The translations under genes and the position numbers were made by a program. From the NCBI RefSeq assembly GCF_013122565.1, contig NZ_CP053258.1: a stretch of 64,000 nt of DNA. The stretch is one strand, 5' to 3'. Below are positions 23,915 through 25,612 of this stretch, piece by piece. A model generated the notes under the pieces. That model saw only the letters and a list, made by a program, of their open reading frames with translations, had not been told where the DNA came from and made no database searches. Each line of letters begins with the position of its first letter. The first letter of the stretch is position 1. The stretch is from Escherichia coli. Lineage in GTDB: Bacteria; Pseudomonadota; Gammaproteobacteria; Enterobacterales; Enterobacteriaceae.

Positions 23915-25612
23915 TTACGCAGAAGTACGCATCACACCAATAGTATTAAATTCATTTTTCACACTGAGCAAACGGGGGTCATGAATTAAAACATTTGACC
24001 ATAAATCATTCTCTTTAATTAATTGTTGCCAGCGCTTTTCATATTCTTTTTTACCATACACAGTGTAAATTAACGGCAAAATCACACCATTGATTTTGTT
24101 GGTGTTAATATTTGCCAGTAACTTCATGATGTCATTTTTTATAGATGCGCCATAGATCAGAAGTTTCGTATAAAGCGAGTTGACACAGGTGTAATCAAGA
24201 CCATGTTCAGGTTCAAGTTTAAGCAATAAACTTTTGGCTTTGTCATTATGTCCTTTCAGTGCCATGAACATAGCCAGAATAGATGTAATAATTGGATTGT
24301 TACAGGTGTTTTGACTGTTAAGATTTAATGCAAAAGATATCGCGTTATCGAGGGGGGATGTGTAATAAAGTATAATTAATTTAAGAATGCTTATGCCCAT
24401 TTTATTGGGTTCAAGAGCAATGCTTTTTTCTATTAAATTAAATGCTCTTGCAAGGTCGCCGTTCAAAAAACATAGCAGCGACTGATAATAATAAACGTCT
24501 GGCGAATTAGGTTTGAGTAAATGTGCTTGTTTAAATAGCACATTAGACACTGAATGTTCATCTTTTAGCCCACTGATTAAACCCAGTAAACCCAATGCCT
24601 GAGAATTTGAAGGGTTAATTTCCAGAGCCTTTTCAATGGAGGTTACTGCCGTAGTTATTGCTTGTTTTTGTTCACTGATTCCAAGGAGTGCTAATGATAT
24701 ATGGCATTCCGCCAGGCAACAGTAGGGCAAGGTATTTTGCGGTTGCGTACTCACACAATCTCTAAATATTACTAATGCTCGTTTCAAACTTTCTGGTGTA
24801 TAACGGTACATTTCCATCCTGCCATTCATATACATAACAGCAGAATCCAGAGATGGCATTTGTTGTGTATTAATAGATTTAAAATTAATGTTGGGTATTT
24901 TTTCAATAAGAATATTAATTACTTGTGATAATAATACGGAAAGAGGATTATCGGGGTTGAAATCAATACTTTGATGATCAATCAATTTATGCGTTCTGGC
25001 ATGGATTAATTCAATAAATAAACGCCAGTTTTTACCATAGTGAACGACCTGACCCATAATATAATATTCTGGGCCTGTTTTATTGATAAACTGATGGATG
25101 GTGGAGAAATCACTGGCCTCATTCGTTACCGAAGCGGGTAAAATATCTAAACCACAAAAAGCATATTTTGAAAGGCCCTGGACCAGTTCGTAATGGAGTT
25201 TTAGAACATTGATCGAACCTTCAGTACGAAAGGGAAAAACGGCAAGAGTGGTGGTCGACTTTATCGGTTCATTATCGGTTACAATCACAATGGGGACAGT
25301 AAAACGGTATCCACGACCATAGACCGTTTCGATATACTTACACTGTTTATTCTCATGCAAAAGTTTACGCAATGCATAAATACACCGTGTTAAAGATTCA
25401 TCACTAGCAACACTCGCGCTCCAGACCTTATCGATAATCTCTTCTTTGCTAACAATTTCACCGTCAGCATTAAGTAATAGAATGATAACGCCAAGTTCTT
25501 TGGGTGGAATATGATATTCTTTGTTTTTGAATAATAATATTCCATTGTTTTTTAATACAAAGTCGCCAAATATATATTGTTGTGTATTATTTTTTCCATG
25601 TTGCAGTTGCAT
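23915..25612 (-). CDS. eilA: HilA-like transcriptional regulator (N-terminal OmpR/ToxR-type winged helix, C-terminal TPR-like region), 565 aa
   Basis: N-terminal segment ends YGRGYRF (winged-helix signature); long helical C-terminus; size close to HilA; strong Shine-Dalgarno (AAGGAG) before the ATG. Confidence 0.8.
   Translation of the reverse strand: MQLQHGKNNTQQYIFGDFVLKNNGILLFKNKEYHIPPKELGVIILLLNADGEIVSKEEIIDKVWSASVASDESLTRCIYALRKLLHENKQCKYIETVYGRGYRFTVPIVIVTDNEPIKSTTTLAVFPFRTEGSINVLKLHYELVQGLSKYAFCGLDILPASVTNEASDFSTIHQFINKTGPEYYIMGQVVHYGKNWRLFIELIHARTHKLIDHQSIDFNPDNPLSVLLSQVINILIEKIPNINFKSINTQQMPSLDSAVMYMNGRMEMYRYTPESLKRALVIFRDCVSTQPQNTLPYCCLAECHISLALLGISEQKQAITTAVTSIEKALEINPSNSQALGLLGLISGLKDEHSVSNVLFKQAHLLKPNSPDVYYYQSLLCFLNGDLARAFNLIEKSIALEPNKMGISILKLIILYYTSPLDNAISFALNLNSQNTCNNPIITSILAMFMALKGHNDKAKSLLLKLEPEHGLDYTCVNSLYTKLLIYGASIKNDIMKLLANINTNKINGVILPLIYTVYGKKEYEKRWQQLIKENDLWSNVLIHDPRLLSVKNEFNTIGVMRTSA

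Follow-up and report, generated by a model that had tools for sequence, protein, structure and literature searches.

The region considered here is the low-GC block of a 64,000-nucleotide (nt) window, the whole stretch of DNA analysed, from Escherichia coli contig NZ_CP053258.1 (assembly GCF_013122565.1). By gene content and order this block is the published eip/selC-B island near selC. The genes follow in the order nepI (yicM), air (eaeX/iatC), eilA, eipD, eipC, eipB, an open reading frame (ORF) of 60 amino acids (aa), eicA, yicS, nlpA, yicL, setC and selC; that is, air/eaeX, eilA, eipD, eipC, eipB and eicA all stand between yicM (nepI) and nlpA. The gene at 23915-25612, on which the analysis centres, is identified by its full-length family match as eilA, encoding a known E. 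coli relative of the Salmonella regulator HilA. Upstream of both eilA and the chaperone gene eicA we found a candidate binding site of an InvF-type activator, and these two sites point to a regulatory cascade with feedback. The gene and the domains of its product are the following.

23915-25612, minus strand: eilA, 565-aa HilA/EilA-family transcriptional regulator (ORF, NCBIfam NF009037, RefSeq name)
25301-25522, minus strand: winged-helix DNA-binding domain, aa 31-104 (Pfam Trans_reg_C, PDB matches)
24218-24829, minus strand: TPR-like helical region, about aa 262-465 (weak Pfam TPR, PDB and NCBIfam TPR matches)

The eilA ORF is intact, with an ATG start and the Shine-Dalgarno sequence AGGAG 7 nt upstream of it. 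The initial annotation had described the product as HilA-like, with an OmpR/ToxR-type winged helix followed by a long TPR-like C-terminus, and the searches bore this out. Residues 31-104 match the OmpR/PhoB/ToxR-type winged helix Trans_reg_C of Pfam (E=8e-16), and the nearest solved DNA-binding domains in a PDB sequence search are those of CadC (5ju7, E=3e-10) and ToxR. No Pfam match to the receiver domain Response_reg was found in EilA. The TPR-like nature of the C-terminal region is weakly supported by matches that are individually weak and mutually consistent: TPR_2 (E=0.009) and ANAPC3 (E=0.005) of Pfam within aa 303-425, consensus-TPR chains of PDB at aa 320-404, and NCBIfam TPR families at aa 262-463. 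EilA has no hydrophobic, transmembrane-like segment, the maximal Kyte-Doolittle value being 1.45 in a 19-residue window. Thus it is soluble like HilA and not membrane-anchored like ToxR and CadC, and a membrane sensor of the ToxR/CadC kind was rejected.

The NCBIfam equivalog family NF009037 (HilA/EilA family virulence transcriptional regulator) matches EilA end to end, residues 1-552 falling on profile positions 2-553 of 553, with 949.2 bits against a cutoff of 589. Identity with YgeH was rejected, as EilA scores 227.9 bits on the YgeH model NF008870 (cutoff 800) and is 32% identical to that protein. HilA of Salmonella enterica subsp. arizonae, whose sequence was taken from the genome scan (locus L014), aligns with EilA without gaps over 544 residues (37% identity, 61% positives, E=4e-133). 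Salmonella HilA was not among the best 120 matches of the first protein search with EilA. By megablast, eilA is present in 730 of the 5426 complete E. coli genomes at 90-99% DNA identity; 727 of the 731 E. coli records fall into the 95-99% class and 4 into the 90-95% class, and the best identity to any complete genome is 99.0%. The listed E. coli matches are annotated in RefSeq as "eilA: HilA family transcriptional regulator EilA". The full-length match together with the 730 genomes rules out a chance ORF. Adjoining genes for SipD-, SipB- and SicA-family proteins link EilA to type III secretion of the type encoded by pathogenicity island 1 of Salmonella (SPI-1). The HilA-like assignment is thus correct and not new.

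The eip locus beside selC was described by Ren et al. 2004, and the regulation by EilA was studied by Sheikh et al. 2006 in enteroaggregative E. coli (EAEC) strain 042. As summarised in later papers, EilA raises transcription of eicA, eipB, eipC and eipD, of eaeX (air), and of eivF and eivA in the unlinked island of the second E. coli type III secretion system (ETT2), and mutants in eilA and eaeX show lower adherence and form less biofilm (PMC4210603, PMC7058095, PMC11068852). EilA complements a Salmonella hilA mutant via activation of invF (Huttener et al. 2014; PMC4210603). The island accompanies intact ETT2 in sequence type 69 (ST69), and a reporter with 500 bp of the eilA promoter is active (Fox et al. 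2020; PMC7058095). The coupling of adhesin and translocon under one regulator, suggested in the initial annotation from gene positions, is therefore a published result (2006) and already known. The control of both gene groups is thus reported for strain 042, but a single regulator is probably too simple a description, as the box upstream of eicA and eilA points to EivF.

A motif shared by the promoters of eilA, eicA and air had been suspected. No motif common to all three was found, but an InvF/MxiE-type box is present in two of them, those of eicA and eilA.

25687-25704, minus strand: InvF/MxiE-type box ATGAGCGTTTTTTGATAG, 92 nt upstream of the eilA ATG
30938-30955, minus strand: InvF/MxiE-type box ATGAGCGAATTTTGATAT of a promoter of the sicA type (PsicA), 78 nt upstream of the eicA ATG

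The pattern ATGAGCG(A/T)(A/T)TTTTGATA is exact in both promoters. The match between them, 14 of 16 positions, is reached in about 7% of shuffles, and 16-nt pairwise comparisons with the air promoter give at most 12 of 16, which is the chance level. Since the pairwise match is weak by itself, the case for the box rests on conservation across species and on position. A weight matrix was trained on Salmonella and Pseudomonas boxes only, with no Escherichia sequence, and scanned over the whole window. The eilA box has the top score of the window, 19.7 against 18.1 for the 95th percentile of the best score in shuffled windows, and the eicA box ranks third. Neither the pairwise comparison nor the matrix scan found an InvF-type box in the air promoter.

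The regions upstream of every SicA-family chaperone gene were taken from 80 loci fetched with the EilA-family alignment. Salmonella has the box TTGGGCGTTTTTTGAATG 103 nt upstream of sicA, and about 35 Pseudomonas SPI-1-type clusters have a box, mostly ATGAGCGCAATTTGGCAG, 76-88 nt upstream of the chaperone gene. E. albertii, which has the same island at the same site, retains both boxes; its 18-mer upstream of eicA is identical, as is that of the diverged second island described below. In Yersinia enterocolitica and E. fergusonii a box lies 101-110 nt upstream of the hilA-like gene despite different neighbours. The pattern ATGAGC-N2-TTTTTGATA is invariant upstream of the eilA or hilA-like gene in E. 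coli, E. albertii, Y. enterocolitica and E. fergusonii, and it holds the two longest invariant runs of the alignment of upstream regions. In the Escherichia, Yersinia, Salmonella and Pseudomonas copies examined by eye, a -10-like hexamer, resembling TAnnnT, follows the box after 20-26 nt; for the eilA box it is TATTTT at 20 nt.

Another high-scoring box, ATGAGCGATTTTTGATAG, was found in the ETT2 island of E. coli GF3-3 (locus L091, 17489-17506, minus strand), about 103 nt upstream of ygeF-ygeG-ygeH. Thus the ETT2 chaperone and a second HilA-like regulator stand behind the same element. ETT2 itself resembles a module of chaperone and regulator from which the translocator genes have been lost. 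A third near-perfect box in the window, ATGAGCTATTTTTGATAG at 34925-34942 (plus strand), lies between setC and selC. No gene stands behind it, as it is followed only by a 9-codon ORF, and it fits the spacing to a -10-like hexamer less well. The surrounding 300 bp belong to the E. coli backbone, as 3673 of the 5426 genomes share them, K-12 among these, and they carry no annotated feature. This copy was not counted as a member of the system, because it lies in a backbone stretch without an annotated gene; it could be what is left of a promoter, or have arisen by chance.

The box has the same T-run geometry as the Shigella MxiE box GTATCGTTTTTTTAnAG, which ends 33 bp before the 5' end of the mRNA (PMC9769918, PMC3299695). 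By about this spacing, counted from the end of each box, the predicted transcription starts of eilA and eicA are near 25655 and 30905. In the Salmonella sicA, sopB and sopE promoters the site of InvF lies over the -35 region, as point mutations verify for sicA (PMC7595419). As the MxiE-box geometry and the position relative to sicA-type genes both match, the box was read as the site of an InvF-type activator; in E. coli this putative activator would be EivF. EivF is encoded in the ETT2 island of GF3-3, the closest complete genome (locus L092, 9712-10461), and is the sole match to the InvF model there, at 185 bits and below the cutoff of 259. A chaperone that could act with it, EicA, is encoded in the window. 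The initial annotation had stated that the window lacks an AraC regulator of the InvF/SicA type. This holds for InvF, since a tblastn search of the window with EivF gave nothing better than E=1, but a SicA-type chaperone gene is present at 30380-30877. In the GF3-3 annotation of the collinear stretches no gene is named as AraC-family, and one is labelled only as helix-turn-helix domain-containing protein.

Possible sites of EilA itself were considered in the promoters of air and eilA.

13022-23863, plus strand: air (eaeX, iatC), inverse-autotransporter adhesin of 3613 aa with tandem Ig-like repeats (ORF, RefSeq name iatC)
12934-12960, plus strand: three (A/T)(A/T)TCAT hexamers, tentative EilA half-sites, 88, 74 and 67 nt upstream of the air ATG
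25719-25736, minus strand: TTTCAT-N6-TTTCAT, tentative HilA-box-like direct repeat in the eilA promoter (pattern match)

The three hexamers of the air promoter compare with 0.47 expected, and E. albertii shares two of them. In GF3-3 the eivF promoter has three AATCAT hexamers, at -93, -72 and -58, and the eilA promoter has four (A/T)(A/T)TCAT hexamers, including those of the direct repeat. These WWTCAT hexamers at air, eivF and eilA may be candidate EilA half-sites, with weak statistics and partial conservation. As a proxy for the HilA box we used the direct repeat upstream of S. arizonae prgH (TTTCAT-N5-TTCCAT). The repeat of the eilA promoter resembles the sequence TTTCATTCTATTTCCAT found there, and it is the sole window match to T[TA]NCAT-N5/6-T[TA]NCAT, for which chance predicts 1.2 matches per window. 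Its second hexamer varies among E. coli. Repeats TTTCAT-N5-TTTCAT were observed also in the E. coli ETT2 island (locus L091, 12755, plus strand) and in the Y. enterocolitica cluster (locus L085, 13019, minus strand), in both cases about 100-120 nt upstream of a LuxR/GerE-type regulator gene; they are candidates for conserved HilA-family boxes.

In Salmonella, HilA activates invF, and InvF with SicA then activates the sic/sip genes (PMC4210603, PMC7595419). The most likely arrangement in E. coli, judged from promoter sequences, is a similar cascade with feedback and not one regulator acting on every promoter. In the first step EilA would switch on eivF, the invF homologue. EivF with a SicA-class chaperone, EicA or YgeG, would then activate the PsicA-type promoter of eicA-eipBCD. 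The same pair would act on the second box, upstream of eilA, closing a positive loop. Finally, air would be either a direct EilA target via the clustered WWTCAT hexamers or controlled through another intermediary. Because EilA induces eivF and the box precedes eilA, the loop may be gated by the chaperone: free EicA or YgeG would signal active secretion, EivF would become active, and more EilA would be made. In its general form this proposal places the HilA-like master regulator of Escherichia-type SPI-1-like systems downstream of an InvF-type activator, with chaperone-gated positive feedback; we put it forward tentatively, as a possibility that the conserved boxes suggest. No mention of a box before a HilA-like gene was found in the literature on EilA, a body that in this case does not include the primary EilA paper.

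Several observations weigh against the proposal. The eicA box scores 15.2, barely over the median of 14.0 for the best scores of shuffled windows, and the statistics are weak for the HilA-like repeat as well as for the WWTCAT clusters. The function of EilA was shown in strain 042 and not in the strain of this window. EivF and YgeG of O157:H7 failed to activate MxiE-box genes (PMC9241512); given this failure cross-recognition cannot be assumed, although the box described here has a left half different from that of the MxiE box. In GF3-3, moreover, two ETT2 apparatus genes are disrupted, a SpaN/EivJ-type gene being truncated and a YscQ-type gene frameshifted (locus L091, 3114-4936). An intact eip island is thus no guarantee of an intact secretion apparatus.

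The disrupted genes bear on the alternative that survives best. It holds that ETT2 has decayed in this strain, so that EilA is mainly a regulator of adhesin and biofilm, and the translocon genes are expressed but their products are not secreted. Attrition of ETT2 is widespread in E. coli (literature on ETT2), the truncated eivJ-type and frameshifted YscQ-type genes of GF3-3 agree with it, and the phenotypes of the eilA and eaeX mutants concern adherence and biofilm. However, all six eip and eilA ORFs are intact in the window, and the literature ties the presence of the eip island to intact ETT2. We regard such an orphaned state of the module as doubtful.

Direct binding of EilA to the promoters of both eicA-eipBCD and air, with no AraC-type intermediary, would account for the reported EilA-dependence of the eip genes and eaeX. 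It agrees with the lack of an InvF-type gene in the window and with the hexamer clusters at air, eivF and eilA. However, the eicA promoter has a PsicA-type box at a distance to the chaperone start as in Salmonella and Pseudomonas, the Salmonella route leads from HilA to invF and only then, with InvF and SicA, to the sic/sip genes, EilA is reported to induce eivF, and the three promoters have no motif in common. This explanation appears unlikely. That the 18-nt box is bound by EilA or YgeH, the HilA-like proteins themselves, and mediates autoregulation instead of activation by EivF and a chaperone is very improbable: it does precede both E. coli HilA-like genes, eilA and the ygeF-ygeG-ygeH operon, and the hilA-like genes of Yersinia and E. 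fergusonii, but the same box overlaps the -35 region of the Salmonella sicA promoter, where the literature puts the InvF site, it resembles the MxiE box needed for activation by an AraC-family regulator, no such box is found upstream of Salmonella hilA, and the presumed HilA box at prgH looks quite different.

The cascade with EivF and a chaperone is thus preferred. Taken as a whole, the description of the gene as eilA, a soluble HilA-family activator in the eip island, regulated as published for strain 042 and acting in a predicted cascade with feedback, is one in which we have high confidence. If the boxes are functional, the translocon genes would answer EilA only through the ETT2-encoded EivF and a chaperone, and eilA would be under secretion-coupled positive feedback. 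This would help to account for the eip island being kept mainly where ETT2 is intact, and the two 18-nt boxes would provide a handle for finding the conditions under which the second type III secretion system of E. coli is expressed.

The remaining features of the island and its surroundings are as follows.

23875-23906, no strand assigned: 14-bp palindromic hairpin in the air-eilA gap (about -27 kcal/mol on either strand, z about -8)
25761-25783, minus strand: stem-loop right after the eipD stop codon, weak or partial terminator (10-bp stem, -16.1 kcal/mol, z=-3.3)
25815-27164, minus strand: eipD, SipD/IpaD-family needle-tip protein (NCBIfam TIGR02553, E=5e-39; RefSeq annotation in GF3-3)
27208-28338, minus strand: eipC, translocator in the SipC/IpaC position (position and synteny; eipC is the literature name)
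28351-30132, minus strand: eipB, SipB/IpaB-family translocator (NCBIfam NF011901, E=1e-30; "type III cell invasion protein SipB" in RefSeq)
30188-30370, minus strand: 60-aa ORF between eicA and eipB (hypothetical protein in GF3-3 RefSeq)
30380-30877, minus strand: eicA, SicA/IpgC/LcrH-class translocator chaperone (TIGR02552, 112 bits against a cutoff of 104.8; SicA model, 150 bits)
35359-35453, minus strand: tRNA-Sec (selC), island landmark (ARAGORN)

The window is collinear with the GF3-3 chromosome from the uhp genes to waaA, at about 98% identity. No phage-like selC-A insertion was found beside selC in the window. Neither the eipC product nor the 60-aa ORF has an NCBIfam family match.

The initial annotation had called the adhesin gene divergent. 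In fact air (plus strand) and eilA (minus strand) are convergent, tail to tail, with their stop codons 51 bp apart, and the palindromic hairpin in this gap is likely a bidirectional terminator. On its other side eilA is co-oriented with eipD and lies downstream of it. The stem of the stem-loop at the end of eipD is kept in E. albertii, and this weak structure suggests two routes of eilA transcription, one by read-through and one from the gene's own promoter.

The adhesin is 3613 aa long in this window, against 3220 aa in GF3-3 and 1763 aa in E. albertii. When air is compared with itself by BLAST, the offsets increase in steps of about 291 nt, corresponding to a single repeat unit of about 97 aa. 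This variation in repeat number agrees with Fox et al. 2020, where EaeX is described as varying mainly in the number of Ig-like repeats (PMC7058095).

A second, diverged eip-like module was observed at another chromosomal site in E. coli contigs (loci L089 and L090, 1-11692). It comprises an inverse-autotransporter adhesin, a chaperone, B, C and D translocators and an EilA-like regulator of 57% identity, with a box upstream of the chaperone gene and none upstream of the regulator gene. That an adhesin is again paired with a chaperone-translocon-regulator module in this diverged island speaks for the adhesin and the translocon being functionally linked.

Within one island that is otherwise conserved, the translocator genes seem to occur as sharply different alleles. 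In locus L004, another contig derived from E. coli (3530-4627 and 1685-3463, compared with 27208-30132 of the window) EipC is 47% and EipB 84% identical, whereas EicA, EipD and EilA are 97-99% identical. The tblastn match of the 60-aa ORF in L004 spans its first 28 residues only. This locus and L005 carry the E. coli eip island at 99% identity in metagenome-assembled genomes labelled Collinsella sp. and Clostridium sp.; the labels are almost certainly a binning error in public assemblies. Near the first nucleotide of the window, upstream of uhpA, a 498-aa ORF (77-1573, plus strand) stands where the GC content is low (39%). NCBIfam gave no match for it, and GF3-3 only a partial one, an 85% DNA match to a hypothetical gene; it looks like a variable accessory gene.

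The closest known system is EAEC 042, where EilA is encoded by the same gene of 565 aa, with the same neighbours and at the same site between nepI (yicM) and yicS/nlpA near selC; the island of the window differs from it only allelically. HilA of Salmonella SPI-1 has the same architecture and length as EilA and can be replaced by it at invF (PMC4210603). However, Salmonella hilA is flanked by hilD and iagB, and its orientation is convergent to that of the sip genes, whereas eilA follows eipD on the same strand. Salmonella hilA has no InvF-type box upstream and eilA is preceded by one. Salmonella hilA is driven by HilD, HilC and RtsA and has no equivalent of the feedback proposed for Escherichia, and neither the window nor the annotation of the collinear GF3-3 stretch showed an AraC-family gene resembling hilD or hilC.

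The second HilA-like regulator of E. coli, YgeH of ETT2, follows the SicA-class chaperone gene ygeG downstream of the same box. It is a shorter protein of 458 aa, lacking roughly the 100 C-terminal residues of EilA. The promoters served by InvF-SicA (PsicA) and MxiE-IpgC (MxiE box) likewise have an 18-nt box with a central T-run over the -35 region, before a chaperone-translocator operon; the left half of the MxiE box is GTATCG, in contrast to ATGAGCG in the box described here. The HilA-like proteins of the Pseudomonas SPI-1-type clusters and CilA of Chromobacterium belong to the same family, at 26-40% identity, and many Pseudomonas clusters have the same order of chaperone, translocators and hilA-like gene on one strand. 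These regulators are encoded inside complete type III secretion clusters, whereas the E. coli module stands apart from the apparatus genes and is paired with a giant adhesin.

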